Below, piece by piece: positions 4,673 through 59,314 of a stretch of DNA of 64,000 nt (position 1 is its first letter; every line of letters begins with the position of its first letter). A model generated the notes under the pieces. It was not told where the DNA came from. It saw only the letters and a program-made list of their open reading frames with translations, and ran no database searches. Origin of the DNA: Mobula hypostoma. Its lineage: Eukaryota. The DNA lies in the NCBI RefSeq assembly GCF_963921235.1, contig NC_086097.1:55678001-55742000 (forward strand), read 5' to 3'. Position numbers and translations under genes: made by a program.

Positions 4673-5129
4673 GTGATAGCTAGAAAGATTGGAGTTTCCA
4701 TGTGGATATGTAAGTGATTCCTCAGAGGTACTGTACTTTAGTTGGGTGTCAGTTTCTTTCAACTTCACAGTTTTGGCACAGGTTTAGAAACTCCATTCAT
4801 CTCAATTCAGAGGGCTGCAAGGGAAGAAAGGATTCAGGTTATTTATGAACTTACAAGGTAGTGGATTTGAGAAGTATATGCAATTATATAGTGCATTTGC
4901 AACTTCAATCTTTCCCTCATCATCTGTAATATGAAGTTAGCTTTTCTTCCATTGCACATTGTGGAGATCTGACTGATATCTAGAAATAATACAAGGAAAC
5001 AGTCTTCATCAGCAAAGGAACATATTAGGATATAATAGGAAAATATTCAAATACTTAAATACTGTATATGAATCAGCCTTAGCATAAAAAGTAAGACATT
5101 TCACAAGAAAACAAAATAAATGAAAGGTG

Positions 5130-5285
5130 TAATACACACAAAATGCTGGAGGAAATCAGCAGGCCAGGCAGCATCTATGGAAGAGAACAAATAGTTGATG
5201 TTTCCAGCTGAAACCCTTCATCAGGACTATCGATAATTCAGGCTGAGACTCTTGATCAGGAATGTCGATCCTTCATCAGGACTTG
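5130..5285 (-). mobile_element. Penelope-like terminal (pLTR) fragment with tandem degenerate hammerhead motifs
   Basis: Matches the PLE end seen at 11161-11260 and 25597-25759; three CTGATSA-containing units on the minus strand. Confidence 0.75.
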
Positions 5286-6479: not shown

Positions 6480-6660
6480 ACACAGGTACTGGAAATTGGA
6501 AATACAAACAGAAAATGCTGGAAACACAACAGTCAAATGTGAAAAGAGAAGTACAATTAATGTTTCAGGTTAAATGATCTAGACCTAGAATGTTTACTCC
6601 TTTTCTCTTTTCAGAGGTGCTACCTGACTTCCTAAGAATTTTCAGCATTTTCCCTTTGTG
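6480..6660. mobile_element. Old inverted pair of PLE termini
   Basis: AAACAGAAAATGCTGGAAACAC... faces ...CCTGACTTCCTAAGAATTTTCAGCATTTTC; both resemble the PLE end. Confidence 0.55.
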
Positions 6661-10700: not shown

Positions 10701-11222
10701 CCTCCTCAATACTGTACTGTAATAATAGAAATGTTTTATTAGTATTGATTGGAAAATGAATTGACAAATATTATCCATTGTCCTCAGATTGGTGTCATGG
10801 GATTTTACAGATTTAACTAAGGCAGCTTCAAGGCCTCTGGTTGAACAGTGCTCTTGTCAGGAACAGGCCAGTCTTCCTTTGGTTGAAATTCATTCTCTGA
10901 TCTATCAGTGTTTCAATACTCCCCATACTTGAGAAATAACTTTTTTCCAATGGTAATTACCTAGGGTACAGATTCAGAAGATGACTTGTTTATTAATTTC
11001 ACCTCTATCTTTGCACTGCATAAAGGCTAAGATGTACTATTCTGAACAAGTTTTGCTCATTTGTCTTTAAGCTCTCTTTGGCCTGAAGTCAATTTTCATC
11101 TGATTATGCTTGTGTGGAGTGCCTGGGGAAGTCTTGTTAAAGATGCTAGGCATCTTCTTGCAACACACATAAAAGTTGCTGGTGAACGCAGCAGGCCAGG
11201 CAGCATCTCTAGGAAGAGGCGC

Positions 11223-11258
11223 AGTCGACATTTCAGGCCGAGACCCTTCGTCAGGACT
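11223..11258 (-). ncRNA. Minimal type I hammerhead ribozyme motif in PLE terminus
   Basis: Minus strand reads AGTC-CTGACGA-AGGGTCTCGGCCT-GAAA-TGTC-GACT. Confidence 0.75.
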
Positions 11259-11551
11259 AACTGAAGGAAGAGTGAGTAAGGGATTTGAAAGTTGGAGGGG
11301 GAGGGGGAGATCCAAAATGATAGGAGAAGACAGGAGGGGGAGGGATGGAGCCAAGAACTGGACAGGTGATAGGCAAAAGGGATATGAGAGGATCATGGGA
11401 CAGGAGGTCCGGGAAGAAAGACAAGGGGGGGGGGACCCAGAGGATGGGCAAGGGGTATATTCAGAGGGACAGAGGGAGAAAAAGGAGAGTGAGAGAAAGA
11501 ATGTGTGCATAAAAATAAGTAACAGATGGGGTACGAGGGTGAGGTGGGGCA

Positions 11552-11965
11552 TTAGCGGAAGTTAGAGAAGTCGATGTTCATGCCATCAGGTTGGAGGCTA
11601 CCCAGACGGAATATAAGGTGTTGTTCCTCCAACCTGAGTGTGGTCTCATCTTTACAGTAGAGGAGGCCGTGGATAGACATGTCAGAATGGGAATGGGATG
11701 TGGAATTAAAATGTGTGGCCACTGGGAGATCCTGCTTTCTCTGGCGGACACAGCGTAGATGTTCAGCAAAGCGGTCTCCCAGTCTGCGTCGGGTCTCGCC
11801 AATATATAAAAGGCCACATCGGGAGCACCGGACGCAGTATATCACCCCAGCCGACTCACAGGTGAAGTGTTGCCTCACCTGGAAGGACTGTTTGGGGCCC
11901 TGAATGGTGGTGAGGGAGGAAGTGTAAGGGCATGTGTAGCACTTGTTCCGCTTACAAGGATAAGT
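11552..11965 (-). pseudogene. PLE C-terminal Cys-rich linker plus GIY-YIG endonuclease (5'-truncated)
   Basis: Open frame TYPCKRNKCYTCPY...FTCESAGVIYCVRCSRCGLLYIGETRRRLGDRFAEH...LEEQHLIFRLGSLQPDGMN. The Cys-rich linker is typical of Neptune-clade PLEs. Confidence 0.92.
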
Positions 11966-12514
11966 AAGTTACACGGTTACACCTACGCTCTGTCCGCCAG
12001 AGAAAGCAGGCACCTACGCTCTGTCCGCCAGAGAAAGCAGGATCTCCCAGTGGCCACACATTTTAATTCCACATCCCATCCCCATTCTGACATGTCTATC
12101 CACGGCCTCTTCTACCGTAAAGATGAAGCCACATTCAGGTTGGAGGAACAACACCTTATATTCCGTCTGGGTAGCCTCCAACCTGATGGCATGAACATCG
12201 ACTTCTCTAACTTCCGCTAATGCCCCACCTCTCCCTCGTACCCCATCTGTTACTTATTTTTATACACACATTCTTTCTCTCACTCTCCTTTTTTTCCCTC
12301 TGTCCCTCTGACTATACCCCTTGCCCATCCTCTGGGTCTCCCCCCCCCTTGTCTTTCTTCCCGGACCTCCTGTCCCATGATTCTCTCGTATTCCTTTTGC
12401 CAATCACCTGTCCAGTTCTTGGCTCCATCCCTCCCCCTCCTGTCTTCTCCTATCATTTTGGATCTCCCCCTCCCCCTCCAAATTTCAAATCCCTTACTAA
12501 CTCTTCCTTCAGTT

Positions 12515-12550
12515 AGTCCTGACGAAGGGTCTCGGCCTGAAACGTCAACT
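12515..12550 (+). ncRNA. Minimal type I hammerhead ribozyme motif in PLE terminus
   Basis: AGTC-CTGACGA-AGGGTCTCGGCCT-GAAA-CGTC-AACT, with one stem I mismatch. Confidence 0.75.
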
Positions 12551-15500
12551 GCACCTCTTCCTAGAGATGCTGCCAGGCCTGCTGCGTTCACCAGCAACTT
12601 TTATGTGTGTTGCTTGAATTTCCAGCATCTGCAGAATTCCTGTAGGCATCTTCTTGGTTGAGATTTCACTCTTGCAGTTCTGCTCTCTGCCAGTAAATGG
12701 CGCTATTGCACTTCATAAATGAATAAAATTGTGCCGCTGTGGCTGTGGAATATCCATTTCTCTAGCCTGTAGATCAAGAGAGTTTGCTCTCACCACAAGA
12801 AGTCCAATGTGTTTGTGCAATAAAGTGCCAAGGTACTGAATAAACCCTTACATTTTATTAAAAGTATTCCACAGAATGACTAAATTAATTAGTGAGATGT
12901 TAAAAGAAAATATATTTGTCTTGCTATTCGAACAACTCATTAGTTAGCTTAATATTTAATATATTAACGCAGCAAATAACAGACTTTTAACATTAATACA
13001 TGGAATATATTAACATCAACCAATCTGAACTTACTGGTAATTTATTCCTTAAAGAAATTATACTCACGGGGGTGGGAGGCTTAGGGAAGAGGAGGGGCAG
13101 CTCCTGGCTGGGAAGCCATATAATGTTTTATGCAAAAATATTGTCCGTTCTGTATGATTACCTACTGTTCTGAGCTGCAAATGACTCCTCTTAATTATCT
13201 TTTGGAGCTGTTGTTTCACAGTTGTTTCTACCCATATTTAGAAATAATTGATTTATTTGTTTCCAGATAATTTCCCTCCTGCAGTCACAGATAGGCTATT
13301 AGAAATTTTGTTTTCATTTTCTATCATGTTTCAGGTGTCACTGACTAAATTATTTTCCTCGTAATTAAGCAGCTGGGGACTCCATTTCAGGATGTAAATC
13401 TGAGAGGTGAATTAAGAAACAAAATGTTTTTTTTTATGGAAAATGATAATTACAATGCAGCAATTCAATGTGAATTTCCATGGCCTCATTTACTACTGAA
13501 TAAGCTTCTTTGAAGTAATAGAAAGTACTTCATTTCCTCATGCCTGAGAAATGATTTATGTTTGCAAATTTGATCTATTATGTGGTATTGATTGCATAAT
13601 ATTTAAAATATTATTTCTATTCATTAACTTTATATTTTCTCCTTTTGCTGTTCTCTGTGAACTGATAACACCTGCGATTAAGATTTTGTGTGTTTTGTAT
13701 GATTTAATGGCTTTACAAATTAAATAAATCAATGATATAATGTGCCATTTGTCTAAGGAGTCATATTATTAATGGCCCTTTAGTTTGAAACATTGTTAGA
13801 ATTAATTGGTTAACCTCTTCTGGTCAAGTAATTAGCTTTTAGGCCGCAGTGTTCTATTGATGTTCCTGAAGCTGGAGTAACATTTTACTGTATCAAAAAT
13901 CAAACCGAGTTGCAACGTGTCGTGAATTGATTGAATAAGGAAACAGAATTCAGAAATATTTCATGCTAGCAATTTGATTTTACCACTTTGATTTCATTTC
14001 ACTCAATCCATAAGAGTATGAATCTACATTGTTGTCTTTAGCAATGGGGAAGAAGCACAAGTCTGATTGCTGAACGGAGTCTTATAAATCAAAGATGCCC
14101 ATGTCCACGCACAGTTGGTGCTCCTGGCAAAGAGGATGCAGGGGGTTTCCTATTAAATTTCAATGAGATATTGCAGGGATACACAGTAGTTCTGGAAGAA
14201 TATAAAACAGTTGTTGAAATTTAGGTACTTTGCTAAGACTGTTCAGAAAATGATTTGACACCCAACTAGCAACTATCTTTTCTGCTTTAAGATAGTGCTG
14301 GAGCTGCTGTGCACGTAAACATTTTCTGATCATTTCAGACTTTGCTCATTGCTTTTGATGTGCATGCTGAGTTAGACTCATTGAAGAGGAATGCAGCCTG
14401 AGTCTACCAGAGAAGATGAAAGGATAATGACGTTGTTGCTTTTGCAGGAACTTGGCCAAGAATTTTTGTACCCGAGGAGATGCTGAAGTTTTCTGGAGAG
14501 GTATTCCCAAAGAAAATGAAAGATTACTTTGCGTGGTCACACTATCTGTGGAACGAATGTAAATTTGTGGGCAGTGTGGTTATTTCACTAAGTAATTGGT
14601 AAGTTTCCCAAGTGACAGTGCAGATTTATAAATTTATTGCTCCTAACGTCACACTTAGTAAACATTGTGGAATGAAAGTACAGTCCCTAATGAATAGTTG
14701 ACAGTAATACATTAATTTGTAAGATATTTATCTTTTTAATTGGTAGTACACAAGACATAGAGTAAATGCTTCAACCATCCAAGTGCATTATGCACACAAT
14801 TTACTGCAGCAGTACCCTCGGCCATGTGCTGTTAACTGACAATATATTTCAATATTAATGTTTCTTGGAATAGAGTTGACTCCACCTGTGTGTGGTCTAG
14901 GATTATGACGCAGTATCATACAAGACAGAAATAAACTTTTATTAGAATTTAGGAACTTTGCGTTATTCAATATGAATATCTTCTAGCATATTTCTCAATA
15001 AGTGGCGATAAGACAAAAAGGCAGGTATTTTAAAAGAAATGGGATAACATACACAAGGTCAGCAGAGGGAGCTGTATATGTGCCTTTCTATTAAACCAAC
15101 GGCTTTCATTGTCAGCTTAATAGCTCCTCTAAACTAATTCCCTTAATGATTTAGATCAAGTTTAAATGATTTGTGCTCCTTCAATCACACTGTTGACAAA
15201 CATACCTAAGGCAATCTAGATCACTTGTACTGCATCTTACTTTCAAATGCCTCCTCAGCGCTGCTCTGTTCAAAGGTTTGACAACCTCTCATCTTAGGCT
15301 CGGGAATTGTTTCCCTTTATATCCCATGTGGCAGCTTGGACTTTCTTCTGTTGTACCACATAAAATAGGTTTGCTATTTGATTATATTTCATGAGCATGC
15401 AGAATGATTGCCCTTATTAGCTGTGAGACGCTGGCCCTGGGCCTTAATCTCAAGTACTGAAGGGTAGCATAAAAGCTTTCTCCTACCTCCGTTTGCTTCA

Positions 15501-15839: not shown

Positions 15840-16130
15840 GTCTACACTGGCAGTAAATTAGAACAGCCAGGTAATCTATCGATATGTCTCTGGGGTGTGA
15901 GAGTAAAGCAAAGCACCTGGAGGAAACCATGAGTGGTCCTGAAGAAGGATCTCGGCTTCAAACGTTGACTGTTTATTCCTCTCCAAAGATGCTGCCTGAC
16001 CTGCTGAGTTCATCCAGCATTCTGTGAGTGTTGACCTGGAGGAAACCACTGGGGGTCTCAGGGAGAGCAATTAACTCCACACAGGTGTCAGAATCAAACC
16101 CAGCCACTGCAACACTAACTGTGGTTCCAC
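15840..16130 (-). mobile_element. tRNA-derived V-SINE (HE1-like), interrupted by a PLE terminal fragment
   Basis: Reverse complement of the V-domain (GCACCTGGAGGAAACCA...GGGAGAGCA...AACTCCACACA) followed by a B-box-like GAATCAAACCC. Confidence 0.7.
15930..16033 (+). mobile_element. 104-bp PLE terminal insertion (degenerate hammerhead plus terminus)
   Basis: 15-bp TSD ACCTGGAGGAAACCA at 15915-15929 and 16034-16048; contains GTC-CTGAAGA-AGGATCTCGGCTT-CAAA-CGTT-GACT. Confidence 0.82.
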
Positions 16131-16211
16131 TTTGATGAACACAATGGACTCAAGATTCAGGAGCTTGAAGACTCGTACGGCCAGATTTGGGAACAGCTTC
16201 TTTCCAACTGT

Positions 16212-16911
16212 CAACACACATCAAAGTTGCTGGTGAACGCAGCAGGCCAGGCAACATCTCTAGGAAGAGGTACAGTCTGTCCACCAGAGAAAGTAGGATC
16301 TCCCAGTGTCCACACATTTTAATTCCACATCCCATTCCCATTCTGATATGTCTATCCACGGCCTCCTCTACTGTAAAGGTGAAGCCACACTCAGGTTGTT
16401 GGAACAACACCTCATATTCCATCTGGGTAGCCTCCAACCTGATGGCATGAACATTGACTTCTCTAACTTCCGCTAATGCCCCACCTCCCCCTTGTACCCC
16501 ATCCGTTATTTATTTATATACACACATTCTTTCTCTCACTCTCCTTTTTCTCCCTCTGTCCCTCTGACTATACCCCTTGCCCATCCTCTGGGTTTCCCCT
16601 CCTCCTCCTTTTCCTTCTCCCTGGGCCTCCGGTCCCATGATCCTCTCATATCCCTTTTGCCAATCACCTGTCCAGCTTTTGGCTCCATCCCTCCCCCTTC
16701 TGTCTTCTCCTATCATTTTAGATCTCCCCCTCCCCCTCCCACTTTCAAATCTCTTACTAGCTCTTCCTTCAGTTAGTCCTGACGAAGGGTCTCGGCCCAA
16801 AACGTCGACTGTACCTCTTCCTAGAGATGATGCCTGGCCTGATGCGTTCACCGGCAACTTTGATGTGTGTTGCTTGAATTTCCAGCATCTGCAGAATTCC
16901 TCGTGTTTACG
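16212..16911. mobile_element. Penelope-like element: short inverted arm (16212-16277) plus forward arm (16276-16911)
   Basis: 13-bp TSD TCTTTCCAACTGT at 16199-16211 and 16912-16924; GIY-YIG C-terminal remnant; close match to 12011-12642. Confidence 0.94.
16775..16810 (+). ncRNA. Hammerhead ribozyme motif with a G-to-A change in the GAAA core (probably inactive)
   Basis: AGTC-CTGACGA-AGGGTCTCGGCCC-AAAA-CGTC-GACT. Confidence 0.7.
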
Positions 16912-17902
16912 TCTTTCCAACTGTGATAAGACTGCTGAACGGATCTTGACCTGGATCCAAATATCCGGACCTGCCTCTCGGTTTTTTTGCACTACCTTAC
17001 TTTCCATTTTTCTATTTTCTGTTTATGATTTATAATTTAAATTTTTTAATATTGTCTAATTGTTACTATTTTTACTATTTTTAATATTTAATATTTGTAA
17101 TCCAGGGAGCGGGAAGCATAGAATCAAATATCGCTGTGATGATTGTATGTTCTAGTATCAATTGTTTGGTGACAATAAAGTATAAAGTATAAAGTAAAAT
17201 GTCCTCCCCCCTTAAGAGCAGGTCTTTGAAGAACACCCATCTGGTGTTCCTGAAACTCTAATTGTTGTTGATTAGGTCCTCTTCTGCTTTCGAAAGTTGG
17301 CAGTGCATACAACACTCATGCTCACTTGGCCATAGAGAGCTTCAAACTGCATGTCAGAAAAGGTTTTCAGAAAAGGTTTTCTGCAAAGTATGGTAACAGG
17401 GTTATAATGCTTCAACCCTTGCACTTATGAGTATATGTTTTCTTCAAGATTTACAAGTAGCCCTTTGATAAAACTTTGACAAAGAAAGGTTTTCAGGATC
17501 ACTTAGAAAAGCAGGTGTGAGAAGTCAGGGTTCATTGTCCGATTTTCCCTGGCACAGTACCACTGTGTTCATGTCTTGGTGTCGTTGGCGAAGGTCAATT
17601 ACTGAATTGTAATTAATACCCCATGTGGTTAATCAAAATAAAATGTGATTTGATGCTGGGTTAAGATACTCCATCACTTTTAATACATTACCCACCCACA
17701 CAGAAAATGAAGCTCTTACAGTGTCAGATTGCTCAGAAGAAGGAAAAGACAGAACAAGGGAGATACAATATCTAACTAAACATATCCTCCCTTGCCAATG
17801 GGAGCCAATTTTATGTCCATGATATGGTTTTTAATTCCCTTCTTGTCAAATTGACATCAGTATCATCTCACTCTGTGTTACATAAATGTTACATATTGAT
17901 GA

Positions 17903-24170: not shown

Positions 24171-25596
24171 TTTGCACAACCAGTAATAGCCTCTGACTAT
24201 CCACATGATCAATACCCCTCATCATCTTATACACCTCTATCAGTTCACTTCTCATCCTCCGTCGCTCCAAGGAGAAAAGGTCAAGTTCACTCAACCTATT
24301 CTCATAAGGTACACCCTCCAGTCCAGGCAACATCCTTGTAAATCTCCTCTGCAGTCTCTCTATAGTATCCACATCCTTCCTGTAATGATGTGACCAGAAC
24401 TGAACACAATATTCCAAGTGGGGTCTGACCAGGGTCCTATATAGCTGTAACATTACCTCACAGCTCTTGAACTCAATCCCATGGATGATGAATGCCAACA
24501 CACTCCATACGTCTTCGCAACAACACTCTCAACCTGCGCAGCTGCCTAAGATCTTGCTGATCCACCAAACTGCCAAGAGTCTTACCATTAATATTATATT
24601 CTGTCTTCAAGTTTGACCTACTGAAATGAACCACTTCACACTTATCTGAGTTGAACTCCATCTGCCACTTCTCAGCTCAGTTCTGCATCCTATCGATGAC
24701 CTGCTGTAACCTCTGACAACCCTTCAGAGTATCCACAACACCCCCAACTTTCATGTCATCAACAAACTTACTAACCCACCTTCTATTTCCTCATCCAGGT
24801 CATCTATAAAAATCACAAAGAGGAGGGGTCCCAGAACAGATCCCTGTGGAACACCACTGGTCACTGACCTCCATGCAGAATATGACCCATCTACAACTAC
24901 TCTTTGCCTTCTGTGAGCAAACCAGTTCTGGATTCACAAAGCAAGGTCTCCTTGGATCCCATGCTTCATTACTTTATGAATGAGCATTGCAAAGGGAACC
25001 TTATCAAATGCCTTACTGAAATCCATATACATTACATTCATAACTCTACCTTCATCAATGTGTTTTGTTACATCTTCAAAGAATTCAATCAGGTTCTTAA
25101 GGCATGACCTGCCCTTGACAAAGCCATGTTGATTATCCCTAATCAGATTATGTCTCTCCAAATGCTCATAAATCCTGCCTCTCAGGATCTTCTCCTACAA
25201 CTTGCCCACCACTGAAGTGAGTCCTACTGGTCTATAATTTCCTGGGTTATCTCTGCTCCCTTTCTTGATCAAGGGAATGATGTTTGCAACCTATCAATCC
25301 TCTGCTACTTCTCTCATCCCTTTTGATGATGCAAAGGTCATTGCCAGAGGCTCAACAATCTCTTCCCTCACTTCCCACAGTAGCTTGGGGTACATTTCAT
25401 CTGGTCCCGGTGATTTATCTAACTTAATACCTTTCAAATGCTCTTTCTTAATGTCTCTATACTGAAGCGTTTCAGTCAGCTGTAAGTCATCCCCATAATT
25501 GCCAAGGTCCTTTTCACTGGTGAATACTGAAGCAAAGTATTCATTGAGTACCTCCGCTATTTCCTTCGGTTCCATGCACGTGTTTCCACTCTCATT

Positions 25597-25759
25597 ACTA
25601 TCTTACTATCTCTTCTTCCAGTTAGTCCTGATGAAGGGTCTCGGCCTGAAACGTCGACCGTGCTTCTTCCTATGGATGCCGTCTGGCCTGCTGCGTTCCA
25701 CCAGCATTTTTTGTGTGTTGCCTGAATTTCCAGCATCTGCAGATTTCCTCGTGTTTGCA
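25597..25759 (+). mobile_element. 163-bp PLE terminal insertion inside the CR1
   Basis: 14-bp TSD TTTCCACTCTCATT at 25583-25596 and 25760-25773. Confidence 0.9.
25624..25659 (+). ncRNA. Minimal hammerhead ribozyme with intact catalytic core
   Basis: GTC-CTGATGA-AGGGTCTCGGCCT-GAAA-CGTC^GAC; predicted cleavage after C25655. Confidence 0.8.
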
Positions 25760-28037
25760 TTTCCACTCTCATTCCTGATTAGTCTTATTCTCACAAGGCT
25801 CATCCTCTTGCGCTTCACTTACTTATAGAATGCCTTGAGATTTTCCTTAATCCTGCTCACCAAGGCCTTCTCATGGCCCCTTCTAGCTCTCCTAATTCCA
25901 TTCTTGAACTCCTTCCTGGCATCCTTGTAATTTTCTAGAGCTCTAACAGTATCTAGTTTCTTGAACCTTTTGTAAGCTTTTCTTTTCTTCTTAGCTAGAT
26001 CTTCTCCATCCTTTGTACACCATGGTTCTTTTGCCCTACAATCCTTTCCCTGCCTCAATGGAACATACCCATGCAGAACACCATGCAGATGTTCCCTGAA
26101 CATTTGCCATATTTCTGTCATGCATTTCCCTGAGAACATCTGCTCCCAATTTATGTTCTCAAGTTCCTGCCTAATAGCATCATATTTCCCCCTATCTCAA
26201 TTAAATGTTTTCCCAAATTTTCTGCTCCTATCCCTCTCCAGCACAATGGTAAAGGAGATAGAATTGTGATCACTACGTCCAAAATGCTCCTCCAGCGAGA
26301 ATCTGACACCTGACCATGTTCAATTCCCAATACCAGATCAAGTACAGCCTCTCCATGAGTTGGGTTATCTACATATTACGTCAGGAAAACTTCCTGAACA
26401 CATCTAACAAACTCCACCCTATCCAAACCCCTTGCTCTAAGGAGATGACAGTCAGTATTGGGAAAGTTAAAATCACCCATCACTACAATCCTATTATTAT
26501 TGCACCGTTCCAGAGTCTGCCTCCCTATCTGCTCCTTGATGTCTCTGTTACTATTGGGTGGTCAAAAAAACACCCAGTAGAGTTATTGCCCCCTTTCTGT
26601 TTCTGACTTCCACCCACAACGACTCAGTAGAAAATCCCTCCATGACTTCCTCCTTTTCTGCAGCCGCGATACTATCCCTGATTAGCAACGCCACGCCTCC
26701 ACCTCTTTTGCCTCCCTCCCTGTCCTTTATGAAACATCTAAAGCCCGGCACACTCAACAGCCATTCCTGCCCCTGAGTCATCCAAGTCTCTGTAATGGCC
26801 ACAACATCAAAATTCCACGTATTGATCGTGCTCTAAGTCCATCCGCCTTGCTCATGATTCTCCTTGCATTAAAATAGTCACATCTCAGATCATCTGACTG
26901 AGTGCTTTTTTGGTCTATCATCTGGCTGTGCACCAACCACCCCATCTTCTGCCTATTCACTTCGGTTCCCACCCCCCGCAAATCTAGTTTAAACCCTCCC
27001 CAATAGCATCAGCAAATGTCCCTCCCAGGATATTGGTTCCCCTCCAGTTCAGGTGCAACTTGTACAGGTCACCTCCTTCCCCAGAAAAGAGTCCAATGAA
27101 CCAAAAACTTGAAACCCTGTCCCCTGCACCATCTCCTCAGCCACTCATTCATCTGCGCTACCTTCCTGTTCTGACCTTCACTAGCTCATGGCACCAGGAG
27201 TAATCCGGAGGTACCACCTCGGAGGCCCAGCTTTTCAGTCTCCTTCCTAACTCCGTAAACTTACCGCACGGGACCTCTAGCCCTCTCCCGCCTATGTCAT
27301 TGGTACCAACTTACCACGACCTCTGACTGCACACCCTCCCCTTCAAGAATATTCTGCAACCGCTCAGAGACATCCTGGACCCTAGTACCTGGGAGGCAAC
27401 ACACTATCCTGGCATCTCTTTTGCTGCCACAGCGTCTCTTATCTGTCCCCCTAACTATTGAGTCCCCCATGACAATTGCTCCGCCTGACTTCACCCTACC
27501 CTTCTGAGATTCAGAGCCGACCACAGTGTTATTGGTCGGGCTGCTGCTGCCTTGCCCAGATAGGTCACCTTCGCGCGCCCACCCCCCTCCGCCAGCAGTA
27601 TCCAAACAGATATACCTGTTGCTGAGGGGAATGGCCACAGAGGGACCCTGCACTGACTACTTTCTCCCTTTCCCTCTCTCGGTGTTCACCCATCTACTCC
27701 TGAATGTCTGAGTAAATAAATACAAATGCACTAAATGCCACCAAAAATGCATGTAGTTCATGATTCATTGAATTCATCGAGTTAATCCTTCAAAAGCCAT
27801 TTATTTAAGTGTCCGAAAACTCCAACAACCGTGTGAGAAGTCATAAGTAGCAACTGAACTGTTGTCTGAGATGAATAACCAACTATTTAAATTATTGCTG
27901 ATCTTTAAAAAAATGTGAGCTATGTTTCTGATACATAGCACATGATTTATGTATTAAAGCCTGTGTCATTTTCATTTATTATCTCCTTGCTCCACAGAAA
28001 CAATCAACATCCTTGCCAACTCCTCACCCAGAACTAA

Positions 28038-30044: not shown

Positions 30045-31600
30045 CCAAACAGTTGCTAATGCTGGAATATAGAATAAGAAAAAAAAACAGAATGCTAGAA
30101 GAACTTATCAGATCAAGCGGCATCTGTAGTTGCAAAAGATCTGTTGAAGTATTGGGTAGGTAGAACAGGGTGGGGGAGGAGGAGGGGAGAGATGAACAAA
30201 CAGAAGAGACTAAATGGACACTTGAGTGTGTGTGGGCTGAAGACCAAGGGTGGGGTGGGGTGAGGGTGGTGGGGGGGATGGGGGGAGGCTTACTTGAAGT
30301 TAGAAAATTCAGTGTTCAGACCATTATCCAAGCAGAATATGAGATGTTGGTCTTCCAGTTTGTGTTTGACTTCTCTGTAGCAATGGAGAAGGCTGAGAAC
30401 GGGCAGGTCGGTGTGGGCACAAGAAAAAAAACTTAAAATGTTGTTCAGCTAAAAGCTTGAGATGGCTATTGTGGACAGAACGCAGGTGCGCTGTCAAACA
30501 GTTGCCCTGTCTAAGCTTGGTTTCGTCCCTGCAGAGGGACCATCTAATGTAGTGGATTAGCTTGGAAGACATAACGGGTAACCCACTTCCTCGCTTGGAA
30601 GGACTGGATGATCATGACGGAGGAGGTGAAGGGCCAGGTTTTATGCCTCTGTGGTTGCAGGGAAAATGCCGGGTGACAGGGAGTGATGAGCAGACCAGGG
30701 AGTCTTGGAAAGAGTGGTCCCTGTAGAAAGTAGAAAGGTGGATGCAGAGAAGGAAAGATGAGACAGGTGATGGGATCACTTTTGGGCAGGTGGAAATGGT
30801 GAGAATGATGTGTTGGATGCAAAAGCCGGTGGGGGTGAAAGGTAAGCACCTGGAGAGCTGCATTGTTGTTCATCTGGGGTGGGGTAACCATGGCAGAAGG
30901 GAAGCCATGTTTCTGGAAGAAGAACAGCATTTTAGCAAGGTCTCATCTTGAAAATAGATGCGGTGAAGATGGAGTAATTGGCGAAAAGGGATAGCACCCT
31001 TACACAAAGCAGGATGGGAAGGTAACTGTGAGAATTGGTTAGATTATGGAAAATGTCAGTGACAAGTCTGTCTCTTGAGATAGAGACAGATCCACAAAAG
31101 GACAAGACAGTTCTGATGAATTTGAGAGCAGGGTGGAATTTGCTGAGTTTAGCACGAATACAGGAGCAGTCACTGATCCAGTCATTGTCATCATGGAGAA
31201 AGAGCTTGGGGTTGTTGGATGTAGGAATAGACTTGAAACAGTGCTTTTTCCACTTACCCAACTGTAAGGCAGTCACAGCTAGGTCCCATGCAAGTGCTTG
31301 TTGCCACCCCTGTGAGCTGCAGAAAGTGGGAGGAATTTAACAAGAAGTTGTTGAGGTTAAGGCCAAGTTCTGCCCTACACTGTTAGTAGAGGGAACTGTT
31401 TGGGACCCTGTTTCAGAATGGAATAGGGAGCCCTAAGGTCATCCTGGTAGCTGACCTGAGGTGCACAGAGACTGGATATCCATGATAAAGATGAGCTGGT
31501 GGAGACCAGGGAACTGGAAGTTATTATAATGCTGGAGGGCACGTGAAGTGTTCTGGATGTAAGTGGGAAGGAACGGGATAAGGAGAAATGTGGTGTAGTC
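30045..31600 (-). mobile_element. Old degenerate Penelope-like element with RT and GIY-YIG remnants
   Basis: Minus-strand MDIQSLCTS, FHPALKF, DRLVTDIF..TNSHSYL, HLRSVHN; PLE terminus at about 30045-30130; forward pLTR remnant with a decayed hammerhead at about 31680-31810. Confidence 0.82.
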
Positions 31601-31829
31601 CAGGTTACCTCTCAGGCACACTCATACAATATCTAGTTTACGCTTCTCCCATACTCTCATCCAGTTTCTTCTCTCCATTTGGCTCCACCTACCAGTCTCT
31701 GTCATAACCTACTTGTTTTGGCTTTTGTTAGCAATCCTTCCTCTTCTCTCTGAGATCTGATGCAGGGTTTCAACCTGGAACATACTTGCTCCTTTTGCCT
31801 CCATAGAATAATTTAAGTATCTCTATTAC

Positions 31830-32629: not shown

Positions 32630-33610
32630 AAAAAGCAAACACCTGCAGATGACCAAAATCTGAAATAAAACAGAAACGGCCAAAATTATTCATCAGGCCA
32701 TGCTGCATGTCTAGAGGGAGAAGCAGAGTTGATGATCTTTAATCAGTATGGTTCTAAAGAGACTGTTCACCCCATAAATTCCTGGTTCACACTCATCTCT
32801 ACCCCCAATCCTCTCATGACATAGTCGCATGGAACTGCAGGAGAAGCAGGCCCTGGTCTTTTACCTCTTCCATTACCATCATTCAGAGACCATAATACTC
32901 ATTTCAGCTGTGGCAAAAGCTCACTTGCACTTCTTTCCAGGTATGTGTCCTACATTCATTGTCTTATCTCTTCTACAGAGGAGAAACAATACAAATTAGA
33001 TAATTCTTTGCAGGACAGCTCTGTCCTGCCTGCAGGGGTGACCCTGAGCTTCCTGTTGCCTGTCATTTCAGTTCTCAATTCCGCTCAGATCAGATTCAGA
33101 TTTCTATTTATCACTTGTGCATCAACATATGTGGCGAAATGTGCCATTTGCATGAGCAGCCAATAGAAGGGTGTGTTGGGGGCAGCCCGCAATGTCGCCA
33201 CACATTCTGCGCCAACGTAGCATGCCCATAATGTTCAGCAGAACAACACAAGCAACATCAACAACAAAAAAAACAAAACAACAAAACAAGCCCTTACCCC
33301 TCTCCCACCCGTTCTCACACCCACCATGTTTTTACTCACTTCTCCTTCCACTTTATACTAACTTCTCCCTACTTTCCATGTCCATCCCAGCCCCACTCTC
33401 ATTCTGACCTGTGTGTCTTTATCCTCTTATCCTTTTCCAAAAAAATCAGATTCTCTCTGGGAATATTACAGCTCCCTGGAAGCAACCCTGAATTCATCAA
33501 TAATAGAAGAATCTTGAGGAACAGTTGTCAACCCGAAATGTTAATTCTGCTTCTAACTCTACGGATGCCGCCTGACCTGCTGAGCATCCCCAGCATTTTC
33601 AGCTTTCAGT
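32630..33610. mobile_element. Old inverted PLE relic with an internal LINE 3'UTR fragment (about 33085-33320)
   Basis: PLE-type termini at both ends in opposite orientation; decayed GIY-YIG-region similarity at about 32870-33080. Confidence 0.6.
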
Positions 33611-33912
33611 GCTTGCAAGCAAGCTGGCTGATCTGAATGGAATTCTGAATGAAAGGAAAAAGCAGGATTTCTTCATCCAAAGTGATGGAGTAGACTGGCT
33701 TAGAGATTAACTGGATGATTAATGTCCCACTGTTTCAATGTTTTAGAATAGATAGAGAGGGAGGTAAAAGGGGAGGGTGGAATTTGCACTATTAATCAGG
33801 GACAAACTCACCGCTGCACTCAGGGGGGACATAATCGATGGCTTGTCCACTGAGTCCATATGGTAGTACTCAAAAATAGGAAGGGTGCAATCACTCCAAT
33901 GGAATTGTACTA

Positions 33913-35019
33913 CAAAGGTTCAAAGGTTCATTTATTATCAAATGATACAACTTCAAAATTCTTCAATTCTCCAGGTAGTCATAACATCAAGAAAGAACAG
34001 AAAGGCAGCATGATCATCACCCCACAAATTCCACCTCTCCCTAAAATAATAAGCAAAAATGGATCAGGCATATCAACTTCCGAATGTCTCCTCCCACACA
34101 AAAAAACTGAACAAAATGGGTCAGACATATCAACCACCAAATTCCCCTCCCACACAAAAAAAGAACAAAATGGATCAGGTACATTGACCCCCAAATTCCT
34201 CCTCTCATACAAGAAAAAGCAAACAAAACTGATCAGGCTAATTGACCACCAAATCCCATTTCCTGCACAAAAAAATGAACAAAACGGATCAGGCACATTG
34301 ACCTCCAAATACCCCTCCTCACACAAAAAAAATCTGAGAAGATCGAGTGAAAAAACACAGAATATAAAAACTATAAGACTGGAAAAAAGAGTCTATAGTC
34401 CAAAGTCCAAATCCAAAATGCAGACAAAACCTGGACAAAAACTCTCCGCGCACAGTGGCAGGCTTTCTGATCAAAAGGCAAGCACTTTGATGCTTCAATC
34501 TCCCTCGTTGCTTTAATCAGCGAACAATGGGAGCTTTAATCAGTGAAAAGGAGTCTACCATCAGCTTGGGCCCTGTCCTGCAGCATGCCCACTTACAAAG
34601 TTCGCACACACTGCCCTTACCTCCCAGAACCCTCGCGGAGACTGCAAAGCACTGGAACACCCAAACGATCTCCATAATTCTGCATTTGCCTTGATGTTTC
34701 AATCACCCTCATCACTTTAATCAGTAAACAATGGAAGGTATAACTGTCAAAATGGGTCAAACATCACCCTGTGCACAATCCTGCTGAGGTTCGCTCACTT
34801 TGCCTCAGCCTTCCAGAGTCCTCTCGGAGACTGCAGAATGCTAAAGCATCCAAGCGATCTCTAATCACCAAAACACAGGTTCCAACGGTTCCAGAAACAC
34901 AATCAAGATGAGAAACAAATGTAAAAGACATAAAAGAAGTGAAAAGGATGGTTTCATGATCAATCCAGAAGATGTCGACCAAAGGAGCATTGTATGCAGG
35001 TGTCATCTTGACCAGAACA
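33913..35019 (-). mobile_element. Non-autonomous retroposon with internal tandem repeats, inserted in the CR1 endonuclease region
   Basis: Minus-strand start GTTCTGGTCAAGATGACAC and tail (TGAACCTT)n; 54-58-bp repeat array at 33990-34330 and a roughly 200-bp duplication at 34490-34870. Confidence 0.7.
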
Positions 35020-42823: not shown

Positions 42824-44084
42824 ATTTACTGATATTGCTATTCTTGTAGAAAATTAACAGTCTAAAAAGGTTCTGGAGAATCTCCAAACCACTCCAATGC
42901 GAAGTTTATAAAGTCTGCTATTCATGCCAGGCTATTCATAAGGAAGCATTTCAATAATTATGCATGAGTACTAATATTGTAGGGTTCAGCAACTGCTAAA
43001 TTGGACTTTATTTTCTCTAATACAGTCCCATGGGATTGAGAATGACTTGCTTCCACTCAGATTTTGTAGGTTCTGAAGTAGCTAATGAGGCCAATGTGGC
43101 AACCACCAATTCGTTTCTGATCACTACATTTCATTGACAATGGGGAGATACCTACACTTAGCAAGGATCTGACCTTCCACTGACAAACTCTACTGTTATA
43201 AATGTTCTACTTTATTTGTAATTTACCCTCACTGCTTTCTATGTTCCATTATAACTAGCCAAGTTGCTAAAACTTTTGATAATGGCTGATCATTCTAGTT
43301 AAACTTCAAAATCAGTGTAATACACAGAAAATGTTGGAGGAACTCAGCAGGTCAGGCACCATCTATGGAGAGGAGGTGGTGTCCACATTCAAGATAAGTG
43401 CCAACAAAATGTCGCTTAATTTAAAGGAAATTATTTTTTTCATCCGGATCTTTTCTGAATCTGTCAGCAGGAACTCATGCATAACAAGCAGTGGGGAGTA
43501 AGGGAGAGGCTTGTCTGTTATTGTATTGGGATTTCAAAACATCATGGACTGTAACTCTTCCTCCTCTTCCTGTCTCCTACACACCCCTCCAACACCATCA
43601 CCACACCCCTAAAGAAGAATTGTTGTCAAAATAAATATGTCTATCTGTGTGTTTCCAGACCGCCCTTGCTAGATAATTTGAACAGAGTTCCTGATTCATT
43701 AGGTCCATCTGTGTGTGGTTGTTCCTGTGCTGACAGTCGTCTTGTGAAGTGTATGAATATATTTAGATTTAGGATCTAGGTTTTGAAACACGGTATCGTG
43801 AATGCTGAGCTACTCAAGAGCATGGTCAGATGAAGCAATATGCCTTTATGTTGATGTGTTGTTAGGCAGCATGTTCAGGCTTATTTCTGTGAATTATTTT
43901 GATGGTGTTTCGTTCAATGATCTGTAAGCCTTCTCCTTCTGCTCTGCGTGCTCTTGTGGATTCTATATGCAGTCTCTTTTTCCATTGATAGCCGTCCTGC
44001 ATTTTTCACAAATGATCTCAACATTTTTAATACATGAATCATGTCAAGTTGCAATTGGAAAAAGCAAGTTAAACATAATTTTTT

Positions 44085-46649: not shown

Positions 46650-47635
46650 AAGTTTCTCCCCTCTCACCCCTTCTCTTTACTTGCCTATCACCTCCCCCTG
46701 GTGCTTCTCTTTCTCTTTCTTCCATGGTCCACTGTTCTTTCTTATCAGATTCCTACTTCTCCTTTAGCCCTTTAGCTCTTCCACCCATCACCTCCCAGTT
46801 TCTTACTTCATCACCCTTTCCTCACCCAGACACCTACCCCTCACCTGGTTTCACCTATCAGCTTGTACTCCTTCTCTTCCCCCCACCTTCTTACTCTGGC
46901 TTCTGCCCCTTTCCTTTGCAGTACTGATGAAGGGTCTTGGCCTGAAATATCAATTGTTTATTCTCCTCCATAAATGCTGCCTGAATTTAAAGATTCAAAG
47001 GTTCAAATATTTCATTTTATTGTCCAAATGTGCATGTACAATACATCTCTGATATTTGTCTTCTCCAGATAGCCATGAAATACAGAAAGGCCATGGGAGT
47101 TGTTGAAAGAAAAGACATCAACTCCCCCGCCATGAGAAAGAAAACAAAACAAAACTCACACACCCCAAAAACCTCTCACCACTTCCTTGCAGCAAAAGAC
47201 AGCAACAGTAGCATCAAATTCCAAACACCCCCCCCCCACACACAAAAAATAGCAGATCCCCATCCGTCTGTTGGCCACAAGAAAGAAAACATCGAACAAC
47301 TGAAGGAGACCAATGTAAGGAACAGTCCAATAATCACATATCAGAATATCAAAAATATCTCTCCGACAGCATACGAAGAGAGTGGCTGCATGAACTCAGT
47401 CCTTCCGTGAAGAGCGACTCCCATGCTGTATCTGAATACTGCTGACCATTGTTGCCCCGGGGCTTCCATTGGGAATGATCGCTGACTCTCTCTGCATTTG
47501 CCTCAATGCTTCAAAATGGAGTCATTCATCACTCCATGCCCCCATCTCTGGTCTTTTCCATGTGTCAGCTCATGGTCTCAGACCGTTTTGGGTCCCTATC
47601 TTGCTGAGTTCCTCCAGCATTTTGTGTGTGTTGCC
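46650..47635 (+). mobile_element. PLE pLTR remnant (hammerhead motif at about 46920-46955) interrupted by a minus-strand retroposon (about 46986-47600)
   Basis: CTGATGA-AGGGTCTTGGCCT-GAAA-TATC; the PLE end resumes CTTGCTGAGTTCCTCCAGCATTTTGTGTGTGTTG; the insert begins with the same TTCAAAGGTTCA tail as 33913. Confidence 0.75.
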
Positions 47636-53465: not shown

Positions 53466-55337
53466 CATCCTGTGACAGATCCTGTCATTCCATCTGGCTG
53501 CAAACCATGACGCAACAGAACACCAGGTAAAATAACAATGTGGTTCACAAGGACTGTCACCGTACCCATGGCTGGGGCCCCACTTACTGCATCTGTATCA
53601 CACTGATAAACCCGGAGAGCAGTCACGATGCTTTTGTTTCTCTCAGTCTGCTGGGCCATTGGTATCTGAGATAAAAGAGTGGCCATTGAATTATCATTTG
53701 AACACAAGGCTCCTGATTCTGATGCACAACTCACAAATACAGTGGCAACGTGATATTAATAGAATTTAGAATATCGCTTGGAATATCATAATGAGGTCAA
53801 TAAAGAACAGGTCTCATGGATTTGAAGTAACCTAGTACATGCTGCAGAACTTTGCCTCATGCAGCATGTACTTTGTCTCTACACCAGTTGAATGTTAAAC
53901 ATCTACACGGCGTGTGGAAGAGGAGGAAAGGTGGAGACTATGCAAACTGCGTCTTCCTGGAAAGTTCATCCATGAACAATAAACATGATTGCATGGGTTG
54001 CTTGCCACAAGCAGTGTTCCCCACTACTAGAACAGTTCTCAGGTTTCACTCATCCCATGTTGGACCAGAAGACATACTGTCGGAACAGAATTAGGCCATT
54101 CGGCCCATTGTCTACACTACCATTCCATCATGCCTCTCTGATTTATTATTCCACTCAACCCCATTCTCCTGTCTTCTCCCTGTAACCTTTGACACCCTTA
54201 CTAATTAAGGACCTATGAAACTCCACATTAAATATACCAAAAGATTTGGCCTCCATAAGACTTAGGAGCAGAATTAGGCCATTCAGCCATTTGAGTCTGT
54301 TCCACCATTCCATCATGGCTGATCCCGGATCCCACTCAACCTCATACACCTGCCTTCTCTCCATATCAGGAAACAATCAACTTCCGCCTTAAGAATTTGC
54401 GCGGACCTGGCCTCCACTGCTGTAGAGCATTCCACAGATTTACTACTCTCTGGCTAAATAAATTCCTCTTACCTCTTTTCTGAAGGGTCACCCCTCAATT
54501 TTGAGGCTGTGCCCTCTAGTTCTGGATACCCCCACCATAGGAAACATCCTTCCCATATCGACCCTATCTAATCCTTTCTACATTTGGTAGGTTTCAATGA
54601 GATCCCCCTGCATGCTTCTAAATTCCAGTGAGTACAGGCAATGAATTCCACAGACTCACCACTCTCTTGCTGAAGAAATTTCTCCTCACTCCTGTTCTAA
54701 AGGGATGTACTTACATTATGAGGCTGCACCCCCTACTCCTAGACACCCCGCTATAGGGAAAAAAACTCTCAGCTTTTCAATATTCTGTGAGTATCAATGA
54801 GATCCCCCCTCTATCTACTGAACTCCAGTTGGTGCATTCCCTGAGCCATGAGATGCGCCTCAGATTCCTTCATTCTCGGGATCATTCTTATAAGCTTCCT
54901 CAGGATCCTCTCCGATGCCAGAACATCCTTTCTTAAATAAACTGTTCACAATACTCCAAGTGCAATCTGACCAGCATCTTATAAAGCCTCAGCATTATAC
55001 TCTTGCTTTTACATTCTAGTCCTCTTGAAATGAATGCGCTGACATTGCATTTGCCTTCCTTACCACCAACTCAATCTGCAAGTTGACCTTTAGGGAATCC
55101 TTTATGAGGACTCCCAAGTCCCTTTGTACCTCCGATTTCTAAATTTTCTCCCCACTTAGAAAATAGTCTGTGCTTTTATTCCTTCTACCAAAGTGTATGG
55201 CCATACACTTCCCTACACTGCACTCAGTGTCCACTTTATTAGGTACACCTGTTCACCTGCTTGTTATTGCAAATATCCAATCAGCCAATCATGTGGCATC
55301 AATTCAATGCATGAAAGCATGCAGACATCACCAACAG

Positions 55338-57714
55338 TATGGAAAGGAGGATAACAGAAAGGTTATCATATGAGCTTGAGAAAAGGGGAATGCTGGCAAG
55401 TTATCAGAGTGGTTTTAGAAAGGGAAGGAATTCCATGGACTCAGTGATTATGTTAGAGACTGAAATAAGGAAGGCCCAGGCAAATAGAGAGTCAATAGTG
55501 GCAGTGTTCTTTGACATTGAAAAAGCCTATGATATGATGTGGAAGGAAGGATTATTAATTAAACTGCACAAGATGGGGGTTGGTGGGAGAGTTTTTAATT
55601 GGATTAAACATTTTTTGTTTGGTAGAAAAATTCAAGTTCGGATTGGATCAGAATTATCAAAACAGTACATAGTGGAAAATGGCACACCTCAAGGTAGTGT
55701 GATTAGCCCGTTACTTTTCATCATTATGATCAATGATGTCTTCACAAAGGTACCCGTGGATATAGGTAGGTCACTGTTTGCGGATGATGGGGCCTTGTGG
55801 AAAAGAGGCAGGAACATGGACCATATAATCAGGAAACTACAAGAAGCAATTAATGAAGTGGTGGAGTGGGGTTATGATTGGGGATGTAGATTTTCAGTAG
55901 GTAAAACTCAAACTGTATTTTTTACCAGGAAAAGGGTTGAGGTAGGGAAGAAGTTAAGGATGTATGGGGTTGAATTAGAAAGGGTTGCATCAATTAATTT
56001 CTGGGAGTTATATTTGATTCACGATTAACATGGGCAGACCATATCAGGAAAGTTGAGGAGAAATGTAAAAAAGTAATAAATGTGATGAGATATTTGACTG
56101 GTAGGGAATGGGGAGCAAGTTGTTCAGCTTTGCAGAGAATGTATGTGGCTTTAGTAAGATCTGTATTGGATTATGGAAATATAGTATATGGATTAGCAGT
56201 TAGGTCTCTTATAAGGAAACTGGATGTGATTCAGGCTCAGGCCTTGAGAGTGTGCAGTGGGGCTTTTAAAACGACACCAGTGTCAGCCGTACAGGTAGAA
56301 ATGGGAATAATGCCTTTGGAACTAAGAAGGATGCAACTGATGGCAAACTACTGGGCTAACTTGCAAGGGCACAATGATTCTCGCCCTACTAAAGGAGTGT
56401 TGCAGGAGTGCTGGGAAAATGGGAGGTTTCAGAGGGATACCTTTAGTCAGGTAGGGAATGATATCGCGAAAGAATGTGGAGTGTTTGATCTGAGGATAAG
56501 TCCTTCAGTAGTTTATCCGGTTGTAGCTCCATGGAAGCTTGTATGGCCTGACATAGACTGGCATTTGTTAGAGGCAAAAAGGAAAGAAAGATATAAAACA
56601 GATTTGGTAAATGCATTTAAGTGTCATGTGATGGAAAAGTATAGTGATTATACTCACATTTATACGGATGGTGCGAAGGAACCTGATACAGGAGTGACAG
56701 GGTTTGGGGTGGTAATACCAGCAAAAGAATTTGGAATCAGTAGAAGAACATCTAATAAGTTAGGGGTGTTTACAGTGGAGATGCTGGCAGTGTTGGTTGT
56801 GTTGCAATGGGTGCAGAAAGCCAGACAAGCCAAAGCATTGATATGTTCAGATTCATCCTCAGTTCTAGCAAGTTTAAGGTCTTTTCACACAAACAGTCGG
56901 CAAGATGTACTTTATGAAGTCCTTCAGTTAGTTACAAGAATTGCAAATCAGGGAGGTCAGGTAAAATTTCTATGGGTTCCAGCACATGTAGGGGTGAAGG
57001 GGAATGAGAGGGTGGATGAGTTGGCAAAGAGGGCGTTAAAGAAAGAAAATGTGGAAATGCACATTAGTATCAGTAAAGCAGAGGTTAAGTGTGTAATCTG
57101 GGAAAAAGTCAACCGAATGTGGCAAGAAAGATGGGACAGGGAGGGGAAAGGGAGGCATTTATATCAAATACAAAAGAGTGTTGCAGTTACTAGGGTAGGT
57201 AATGGAAACAGAAGAGAGGAAATTGTGTGGATTAGGTTAAGGCTGGGGCATTGTGCATTAAACAAAACATTGAAAATGATAGGGAAACACCAGACAGGAT
57301 TGTGTGAGGAATGTCAGGAAGAGGAGTCAGTAGAACATGTAGTTTTGTGTTGCAGGAAGTATGGGAGACAGAGATAGATGATGAGAATTAAATTAAGGGA
57401 GTTGGGGGTGCAGGAATTCACATTAAAAGGGTTGCTGGGCATGGGTGAGAGAGCACAAGTCCGGGTATTTTTAGCGTTCTTAAGGGGTACAGGGGTTTTT
57501 TTATAGAATATGACGAATAAACAGGAATAGGATACTAGGATGGTCAAAGATGGGAGGGTGAAGTGTAGGTTTGTATATATATATATATATATATGTGTGT
57601 GTGATTGGGTGAAGGGATTTAGAATGTATGTCTAGTGCACATTCTGGAGCAGAGGGTGGCGATAATGCACCATTAAGCTGGATGCCAACCGCCGTAAAAC
57701 AAGATACAGACAGA
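55338..57714 (+). mobile_element. 5'-truncated I-group (Nimb-like) non-LTR retrotransposon with RNase H
   Basis: 16-bp TSD CAGACATCACCAACAG at 55322-55337 and 57715-57730; (CAGA)n tail. Confidence 0.9.
55339..57513 (+). pseudogene. ORF2 with RT, RNase H and C-terminal CCHC finger (frameshift at about 55995, premature TAG at 57375)
   Basis: FFDIEKAYD, GTPQGSVISPLLF, LFADDGALW; RNase H IYTDGAK, EMLAV, ICSDS, WVPAHVGVKGNERVD; RLRLGH..CEECQEEESVEHVVLCC. Confidence 0.92.
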
Positions 57715-59314
57715 CAGACATCACCAACAGGTTCAGTTGTTATTCAGACCAAGCATCAGAATTGGGAAGAAATGTGAGTAAAGTAACTTTCACTGTGGAA
57801 TGATTGTTAGTGTCAGACTGGGTGGTTTGAGTATCTTAGAAACTACTGATTTTCATGCACAACATTCTAGAGTTTACAGAGAATACTGTGACAACCAAAA
57901 AAAAAAAAATCCAGTGAGTGGCAGTTCTGTGGATGAAAATGTCTTGTTAATGGGAAAGGTCAGAAGAGAATGGCTGGATTGGTTCAAGCTGACAGGAAAG
58001 ACACAGTAGCTCAAATAACCATGCATTACAATGATGGTGTGCAGAAGAACATCTCCAAATGCACAACACATTAAAGCTTGAAGTCAACAGGCCACAAACA
58101 TACCCTCAGTGGTCCCTTCATTAAGTATGGGAGGTATCTAATAAAGTGACCACTGAGTATATATTTCATCTGCCACTTCTTTGCCCATTCTCTTGATCTG
58201 TCTAAGTGCTTTAGCAGAAACCCTACTTCTCAACACTATTGGCCCCTCCACCTACCTTTGTATCATCTACAAACTTGGCCACAGAGCCATCAATTCCATC
58301 ATTCAAGTCATTGACCTATAATGTGAAAAGAAGCAGTCACAACATTGACTTCTATGGAGCACTACTAGTCAGTAGCAGCCAACCAGAGAAGACCCCTTTA
58401 CTCCTGCTCTTTGCCTCCTACCAGTCAGTCAATCTTTTGTCAATACTAGTATCTTTCATGTATCTCATGTACAGCACCTTGTCATAGGCCTTCTGAAAAT
58501 CCTAGTAAACAACATCCACTGACTCCCCTTTGTCTATGCTACCTGTTATTTCCTCAAAGAATTCCAACAGATTTGTCAGGCAACATTTCCCCTTAAGGTA
58601 ACCATGTTGACTTTGGCCTATTTTATCACATGCTTTCATATACCCAGAAACCTCATCCTTAGTAATGGACTCCAACACTTTACCAACAAATGAAGTCAGG
58701 CTAACTGGCTTATAACTTCCTGTCTTTTGTTTTCTTCCCTTCTTAAAGAGTAGAATGACACTTGCAATCTCCTAGTCCTCCAGAACTATTCCAGAACCCA
58801 ATGATCCTTGAAATAGCACTACTAATGCCTCCACAATCTCTTCAGCTACCTCTTGCAGAACTCTGAGATGCATTCCAAGTTCCCAAGCACCTCCTTCTTA
58901 GTAATAGCAACTACACTCACTTCTGCCTCCTGACACTCTTGAATTTCTGACATACTGCCCGTGAAGACTGATGCAAAATACTAATTAAGTTTGTCTGCCA
59001 TTTCCTTGTCCCCTATTACAACCTCCCCAGAGTCATTTTCCGGTGGTCTGATGTCCATTCTCACCTCGCTTTTACTCTTTATATATCTGAAAAAACTTTT
59101 GGCATCCTCTTTTATATTATTAGCTAGCTTACTTTCATATTTCCACTTTTTTCTTATTGCTTTTTTTAGATCCCTGTTGGATTTTAAAAGCTTCCCTATC
59201 TATATTGCTATATTATATGCCCTCTCTTTTGCTCACATTTTCACATCTCAACAAAAGACATTTGGATAAATACATGGCCAGGAGGGGTTCAGAAGGGTAT
59301 GGGCCAAATATACA

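Follow-up and report, generated by a model that had tools for sequence, protein, structure and literature searches.

A short motif that recurs in the DNA of Mobula hypostoma analysed here (NCBI RefSeq assembly GCF_963921235.1, contig NC_086097.1, positions 55,678,001 to 55,742,000 of the forward strand; this stretch of 64,000 nucleotides is called the window) raises the question of whether an RNA whose third stem has shrunk to a loopless palindrome can be a self-cleaving ribozyme and, if so, with what partner. A sequence-only reading of the window had placed about eight minimal hammerheads at the ends of PLEs and had held that each must pair with a second copy. We assign a probability of roughly three in four to the following answer: the motif is the min-HHR of a Neptune-type PLE pseudo-LTR which, as a domain-swapped dimer and likely with the help of protein, would trim the element's RNA, the copies in the window being relics of such elements. 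The hammerhead copies are these:

25624 to 25659, plus strand: minimal type I hammerhead, the best-preserved copy, with a G10.1-U11.1 wobble and a 3-bp stem I.
11223 to 11258, minus strand: hammerhead copy in which C15.2 has become T and the palindrome is gone.
12515 to 12550, plus strand: hammerhead copy in which G1.1 has become A and the closing pair of stem I is gone.
16775 to 16810, plus strand: hammerhead copy in which G12 has become A, with loss of the general base; the sole copy with C11.1.
15935 to 15970, plus strand: older-subfamily hammerhead copy in which G12 has become C.
5193 to 5228, minus strand: older hammerhead copy with G.G at 10.1-11.1.
46920 to 46955, plus strand: older copy, terminal in a pyrimidine-rich remnant of a pseudo-LTR, with its core kept, ATAT as stem III and the closing pair of stem I gone.
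31753 to 31788, plus strand: degenerate copy, its core broken by the loss of G8 and A13 (profile E 0.048).
About 33510 to 33546, plus strand: degenerate copy with an old GIY-YIG remnant upstream of it, at 32824-33075 (E 5e-9 including the 3' flank).
5193 to 5283, minus strand: tandem of the older copy and two decayed head-to-tail units upstream of it (units of 36, 35 and 20 nt).

Five of the eight positions named by the sequence-only reading (25624, 11223 on the minus strand, 12515, 16775 and 5193 on the minus strand) were exact, while three had to be moved by 1-4 nt, to 15935-15970, 46920-46955 and 31753-31788; the degenerate copy at about 33510-33546 (plus strand) and two partial units at 5229-5283 (minus strand) had been missed. 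One of the eight named copies, 31753, has lost its core. The motif was correctly parsed into stem I (AGTC/GACT), CUGAYGA, an extra A, a stem II of 3-4 bp, GAAA, ACGT and C17, and the differences among the four young copies are indeed of the CpG type, since all six variable columns are transitions and five of them lie at CpG. The CCC given as the consensus of stem II is, in contrast, a reconstruction and not the majority: T stands at 11.1 in three of the four young copies, and C in only one of the eight.

The boxes lie in type I order with a UH cleavage triplet, and the complete set is found in the copy at 25624, where cleavage is predicted after C17 (position 25655). Across the eight named copies CUGANGA is intact in seven and GAA in five; stem III reads ACGT in four and ATAT in one and shows single-transition decay in the other three; G10.1 and the extra A between 9 and 10.1 are present in all of them. 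CUGANGA, GAA, ACGT and the 1.1-2.1 pair are intact together only at 25624. A strict descriptor of a loopless hammerhead found two matches in the window (25624 and 11223) and none in any of 200 dinucleotide shuffles. A profile built from seven copies, each comprising the motif and 70 nt of 3' flank, gave 20 matches when the window was searched at E values up to 1; the seven seeds scored 2e-18 or better, and the other matches were 31753 (E 0.048), pieces of the tandem and further 3'-end fragments. With a pattern anchored on the 3' flank no match was obtained in metagenome contigs or in viral contigs. The check by covariance models that had been proposed came back empty: no Rfam hammerhead family matched at E values up to 10, either in the whole window or in two short stretches. 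Rfam hammerhead models expect a closed stem III.

The relative conservation of the core is a direct observation. At the non-CpG positions of the core, the extra A and stem III, four older copies, which were selected for their resemblance to the motif and cannot count as independent, match the majority of the young copies at 38 of 40 positions, against 49 of 60 in the stems and loop and 45 of 68 in the next 20 nt downstream; upstream and far-downstream comparisons were set aside, some copies being truncated there. The difference between core and 3' flank is significant (Fisher p 4e-4), whereas core versus stems and loop of the motif itself falls short of significance (p 0.07). The advantage of core over flank to which the sequence-only reading had tied its case is therefore present, subject to the same selection bias.

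The location of the motif and the anatomy of its carrier can likewise be read off the window:

11555 to 11968, minus strand: C-terminal piece of a PLE ORF with a C-X4-C-X2-C linker and a GIY-YIG endonuclease (from translation, Pfam and the ESM Atlas).
11161 to 12642, no single strand: two-armed inverted PLE insertion, its arms 96% identical over 603 nt, with a 30-nt tail on the right arm only.
16212 to 16911, no single strand: second two-armed inverted PLE insertion, with a short minus arm at 16212-16277.
15930 to 16033: solo insertion of 104 nt that carries the 15935 copy, between 15-bp target duplications (15915-15929 and 16034-16048).
25597 to 25759, plus strand: solo 5'-truncated PLE 3' end (27 nt of upstream sequence, hammerhead, 3' hairpins and tail) in a putative CR1-like LINE remnant.

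The ORF piece matches Pfam PF01541 with an E value of 4e-4 and 21 bits, below the cut-off of 22.6, and GIY-YIG clusters of the ESM Atlas at 0.96. It ends about 295 nt upstream of the 11223 hammerhead on the same strand; the same ORF end also precedes the copies at 12515 and 16775, and older remnants of it lie at 32824-33075 and 30293-30569. This ORF piece and the layout of the motif uphold the assignment to PLE-terminal minimal type I hammerheads. Inverted arms, tails and the Zn linker are hallmarks of PLEs, and a CX2-5CxxC linker before the endonuclease marks Neptune and Nematis (Craig et al. 2021, PMC8557442); the PLE groups reported from vertebrates are Neptune and Poseidon (Li et al., bioRxiv 10.64898/2026.07.22.740005). 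We therefore call the host element a Neptune-type PLE, an assignment that takes the linker and the GIY-YIG domain as its signature.

In the young copies the 5' truncation falls inside the linker or downstream of it. Clean target duplications of 13-15 bp are found at four of the seven insertions examined; those of the two-armed insertions measure 14 bp (11147-11160 and 12643-12656) and 13 bp (16199-16211 and 16912-16924), and the segment 25597-25759, homologous to the long copies, lies between 14-bp direct repeats (25583-25596 and 25760-25773). At three old insertions (5127-5283, 43315-43415 and 6505-6655) the duplications are too decayed to call. Six 3' ends fall at two places, +98/+99 and +128 to +137 counted from where stem I begins, and for this reason the tails are 30-39 nt long; they occur on one arm only (30 and 39 nt in the two two-armed insertions). 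The sequence around 25597-25759 appears from its ORF to be a CR1-like LINE, and the flanks of the 25624 copy are 84-87% identical to the young copies. The copies of the window are dispersed, 5'-truncated insertion relics, neutrally decaying and mostly decayed already, without host function.

Several other observations concern PLE insertions. Where the two arms meet, at 11969-12050, there are about 15 nt of filler of unexplained origin and a direct duplication of 31 nt, such as a template jump would leave. Two further old PLE relics, at 6505-6655 and 32688-33600, resemble inverted arm pairs of an older subfamily. The region from the hammerhead to the 3' end (12551-12642 and its equivalents), conserved among subfamilies, forms nested hairpins when folded; it is a candidate for the binding and start site of the reverse transcriptase.

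That the motif has no standard monomeric stem III is also observed here. In the monomer the A15.1-U16.1 pair would enclose only two bases, under the minimum of three, and the standard monomer fold is for this reason impossible, as the sequence-only reading had maintained. Nearest-neighbour folding of a CpG-restored unit predicts a monomer rod that buries the core (-11.9 kcal/mol), and for the dimer an inactive duplex at -32.1 kcal/mol versus an active dimer at -14.7 kcal/mol (-9.5 kcal/mol with U11.1). Inactive folds dominate in the monomer, in the dimer and with flanks. Pairing with a second copy is necessary, as had been claimed, but probably not sufficient, the active dimer lying 17-19 kcal/mol above the inactive duplex. 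These figures exclude tertiary energy, and because that energy is uncounted, the folding points to a need for help, not to inactivity. The 5193-5283 tandem was considered as a ready-made cis dimer and rejected, the cores of units 2 and 3 being broken; these two units are identical at 25 of 35 positions, and none of the three is complete. An intact tandem built in silico is also predicted to prefer an inactive rod (-28.7 vs -10.6 kcal/mol). As a separate matter, the shortest tandem unit (20 nt, within 5229-5283) resembles a deletion between two GTC words, and runs X1 and X14 each contain a single joint that leads back to 12515, which suggests similar head-to-tail duplications elsewhere.

Cleavage by dimers of this kind is reportedly announced in the title of a paper by Lunse and colleagues from 2017. 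That paper is cited in two reviews (PMC6765202, PMC7761336). The class itself goes back to Cervera and De la Pena (2014, PMC4209133), who defined the min-HHR as a motif that requires neither helix III nor loop 3 if two motifs pair, gave as its emergent features an extra base 9/10.1, G10.1-C11.1 and a palindromic 15.2-16.2, and reported it in Xena, Poseidon and Neptune PLEs of fishes; the dimer proposal of the sequence-only reading is the hypothesis already published there. In their schistosome min-HHR the monomer did not cleave, and dimers and trimers cleaved at a low level (PMC4209133), while the hammerhead of an anole PLE required the element's protein for cleavage (Frangieh et al. 2024, PMC11167929). 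The help that the folding model calls for agrees with this published weak and protein-assisted cleavage; both properties are carried over from other PLEs as described in these papers, and by analogy with the anole element the activity of the present motif probably needs protein help.

The window motif has in common with the metazoan min-HHRs of PMC4209133 the type I order, CUGANGA plus one base, G10.1, GAAA-C-G-U-H, a loopless stem III, the palindromic 15.2-16.2, a stem I of 3-5 bp, a U-rich upstream stretch and its place in a 3' pLTR, mostly as dispersed single copies. The nearest layouts in Fig. S3 of that paper are those of Acropora digitifera Neptune, Nematostella (two), Ixodes (one) and Xenopus (two), and in layout both the published consensus and the Acropora Neptune row match the window motif almost letter for letter. 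The window motif differs in a stem II of 3-4 bp, at the short end, and in the commonness of U11.1. Its sequence family is absent from the rows of Fig. S3 and Table S1 that were examined, in the parts of the supplement consulted no name of a shark or skate turned up, and a search of mostly open-access literature found no cartilaginous-fish PLE ribozyme. The motif is a genuine PLE min-HHR of the kind described in 2014, to which it adds one family; the class has been described as universal in canonical PLEs, so that one more family matters little.

Double hammerheads in ASBVd and newt satellite 2 were reportedly described by Forster and colleagues in 1988. They likewise act as a domain-swapped dimer with a shared stem III (via PMC4209133, PMC6765202 and PMC6155905), but they keep a short stem III with its loop and occur in short tandem repeats or in viroid RNA. 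Animal non-LTR retrozymes (Cervera and de la Pena 2020; Li et al., bioRxiv 10.64898/2026.07.22.740005) are also of type I and related to PLE pLTRs, and a single chondrichthyan genome has been reported to contain them; they differ in forming tandem arrays in which successive units (51-972 bp) carry complete motifs. We rejected a retrozyme identity for the present copies, which are dispersed PLE ends and whose only tandem (5193-5283, with a 35-nt unit) is broken. PAc, the Poseidon element of Anolis carolinensis, has like the present family a hammerhead in its pLTR and, beyond it, two alternative 3' ends separated by 30-40 nt, and in PAc two start sites of reverse transcription make the tail (PMC11167929). 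PAc belongs to another clade, without the Zn linker (PMC8557442); its hammerhead has been assayed and its ORF starts at stem II (PMC11167929), whereas here an ATG-led frame appears to stop in the tail region and the young copies read ACG.

In contigs aligned to the 12515 copy, whose depth is a rough measure, C at 11.1 makes up 20% and 18% of the depth in two runs of organism A (20% in X1), in which the neighbouring CpG G at 1.1 is kept at 82% (X1) and 95%; since C11.1 is rare while the neighbouring G1.1 is kept, a young subfamily has probably fixed U11.1. With this base the pair at 10.1-11.1 becomes G.U, or else the extra A is consumed in an A-U register. In two other organisms C at 11.1 amounts to 69% and 55% of the depth. 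At 80% likeness the hammerhead bin has 8.1x (X14) and 5.4x (X15) the depth of the upstream bin, and 12.3x and 4.0x that of the 3' bin at 12560-12584; the peak over the 3' bin is absent in X1 (1.2) and X16 (0.6). X14 and X15 are runs of two other organisms, and X15 and X16 may be RNA runs. Among the 40 differences listed, out of 128, two lie inside the 36-nt motif and none in the core. Taken as evidence for retention of the core, these patterns of depth and difference are supportive, not conclusive.

The same data may be read to mean that the motif is a hammerhead by descent which no longer cleaves, and which is either kept as part of an RT-bound structured 3' region or carried along; we regard this as improbable. 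The dominance of inactive folds in monomer, dimer and flanked forms is what it would predict, G10.1-C11.1 is replaced by the G.U or A-U register in 80% of the X1 depth, and the 3' hairpin region is conserved between subfamilies just as the hammerhead is. Core mutants of the anole hammerhead leave insertion in vitro unblocked, and no RNA reads were found to end at its cleavage site (PMC11167929); Naiad PLEs thrive without canonical hammerheads (PMC8557442). Nonetheless, it is the core letters that are best kept between subfamilies, G10.1.U11.1 also occurs in published min-HHRs (the cichlid, Xenopus, Clonorchis and Latimeria rows of PMC4209133), and the anole motif does cleave, with rescue of C3/G8 (PMC11167929).

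That anole element, whose hammerhead cleaved only with protein and for which PMC11167929, in the parts consulted, does not state a need for a second motif, also suggests that a single motif might cleave once the element's protein refolds the RNA. We consider this quite unlikely here: A15.1-U16.1 would have to close a 2-nt loop, the anole protein is predicted to be a dimer that could hold two RNAs (PMC11167929), and the 15.2-16.2 palindrome is kept across metazoan min-HHRs (PMC4209133), which makes sense only as pairing between copies. Domestication of the 25624 copy, with a role in some transcript of the host, is very improbable: although it alone of the eight has core, palindrome and closing pair of stem I, it sits in a LINE remnant between target duplications, its flanks have diverged like those of any old insertion (84-87%), its nearest same-strand partner is 8.8 kb off and without G12, and one survivor among eight is expected.

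The preferred reading, a min-HHR that acts as a domain-swapped dimer, would work as follows. The hammerhead sits in the pseudo-LTR, about 295 nt past the stop of the ORF, and the two alternative 3' ends follow it at a distance of 66-105 nt. The catalytic fold could arise in the source element only by domain swapping between two copies: CUGANGA, stem II and GAA of one copy would act on the GUC of the second, ACGU would pair with ACGU, and both stems I would form between the copies. The two copies may be the two pseudo-LTRs of a tandem transcript or two RNAs held together, the element's own protein would most likely help them to pair, and cleavage would trim the element RNA. We infer catalytic activity for this PLE family. 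Whether min-HHRs cleave in vivo, and why PLEs keep them, are open questions of the field (PMC7761336, PMC8557442, PMC11167929), and a young family of very high copy number such as this one is a good test case, in which the 5' ends at the cleavage site can be counted from genome sequence.

One insertion in the window offers a lead of this type. The short arm 16212-16277 (minus strand) starts at position 33 of the motif, the first base past the predicted cut, with a 2-nt microhomology that widens the range to 33-35. For this single case, spotted after the fact, the chance of coincidence is about 2% if the six mapped 5' ends are spread evenly along 800 nt, and about 13% once the clustering of three of the six within 65 nt is taken into account. 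Among the 24 loose ends listed, out of 2399, no 5' end fell at the cleavage site. A second lead lies immediately upstream of the motif:

12492 to 12516, plus strand: putative splice acceptor, made up of TACTAAC resembling a branch point, a pyrimidine run and an AG that adjoins stem I on its 5' side.

Equivalents of this stretch precede 11258 (minus strand), 16775, 25624 and 46920, and for each of the four young copies folding predicts that the stretch pairs with the CUGANGA core. No joint ended at the site among the 15 joints listed, out of 243. The intron of D. virilis Penelope ends at the same place, and several published min-HHR rows have an AG after a U-rich run just upstream (PMC4209133). 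The two leads could be combined in a doubtful scheme in which two RNAs sit on one protein dimer, their hammerheads pair and an arm made from the cleaved RNA starts at 1.1, the acceptor-like stretch masking the core until it is spliced out. If 5' ends proved to be in excess at the predicted cut genome-wide, this would count as direct evidence for the action of min-HHRs in transposition.

The window contains other features. The best Rfam match in it, mir-9256 at 58098-58164 (minus strand), scores 41.5 bits against a gathering score of 80 and was set aside as unrelated to the hammerhead; the sequence is an inverted-repeat hairpin, probably a small foldback transposon. On the same strand, 55315-57377 holds open frames of 237 and 459 aa that may represent the end of an RT and an RNase H-like domain of a relatively intact LINE. 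Finally, the 220-aa open frame at 33854-34516 is composed of repeats of ~22 aa and corresponds to a minisatellite with a unit of ~66 nt.
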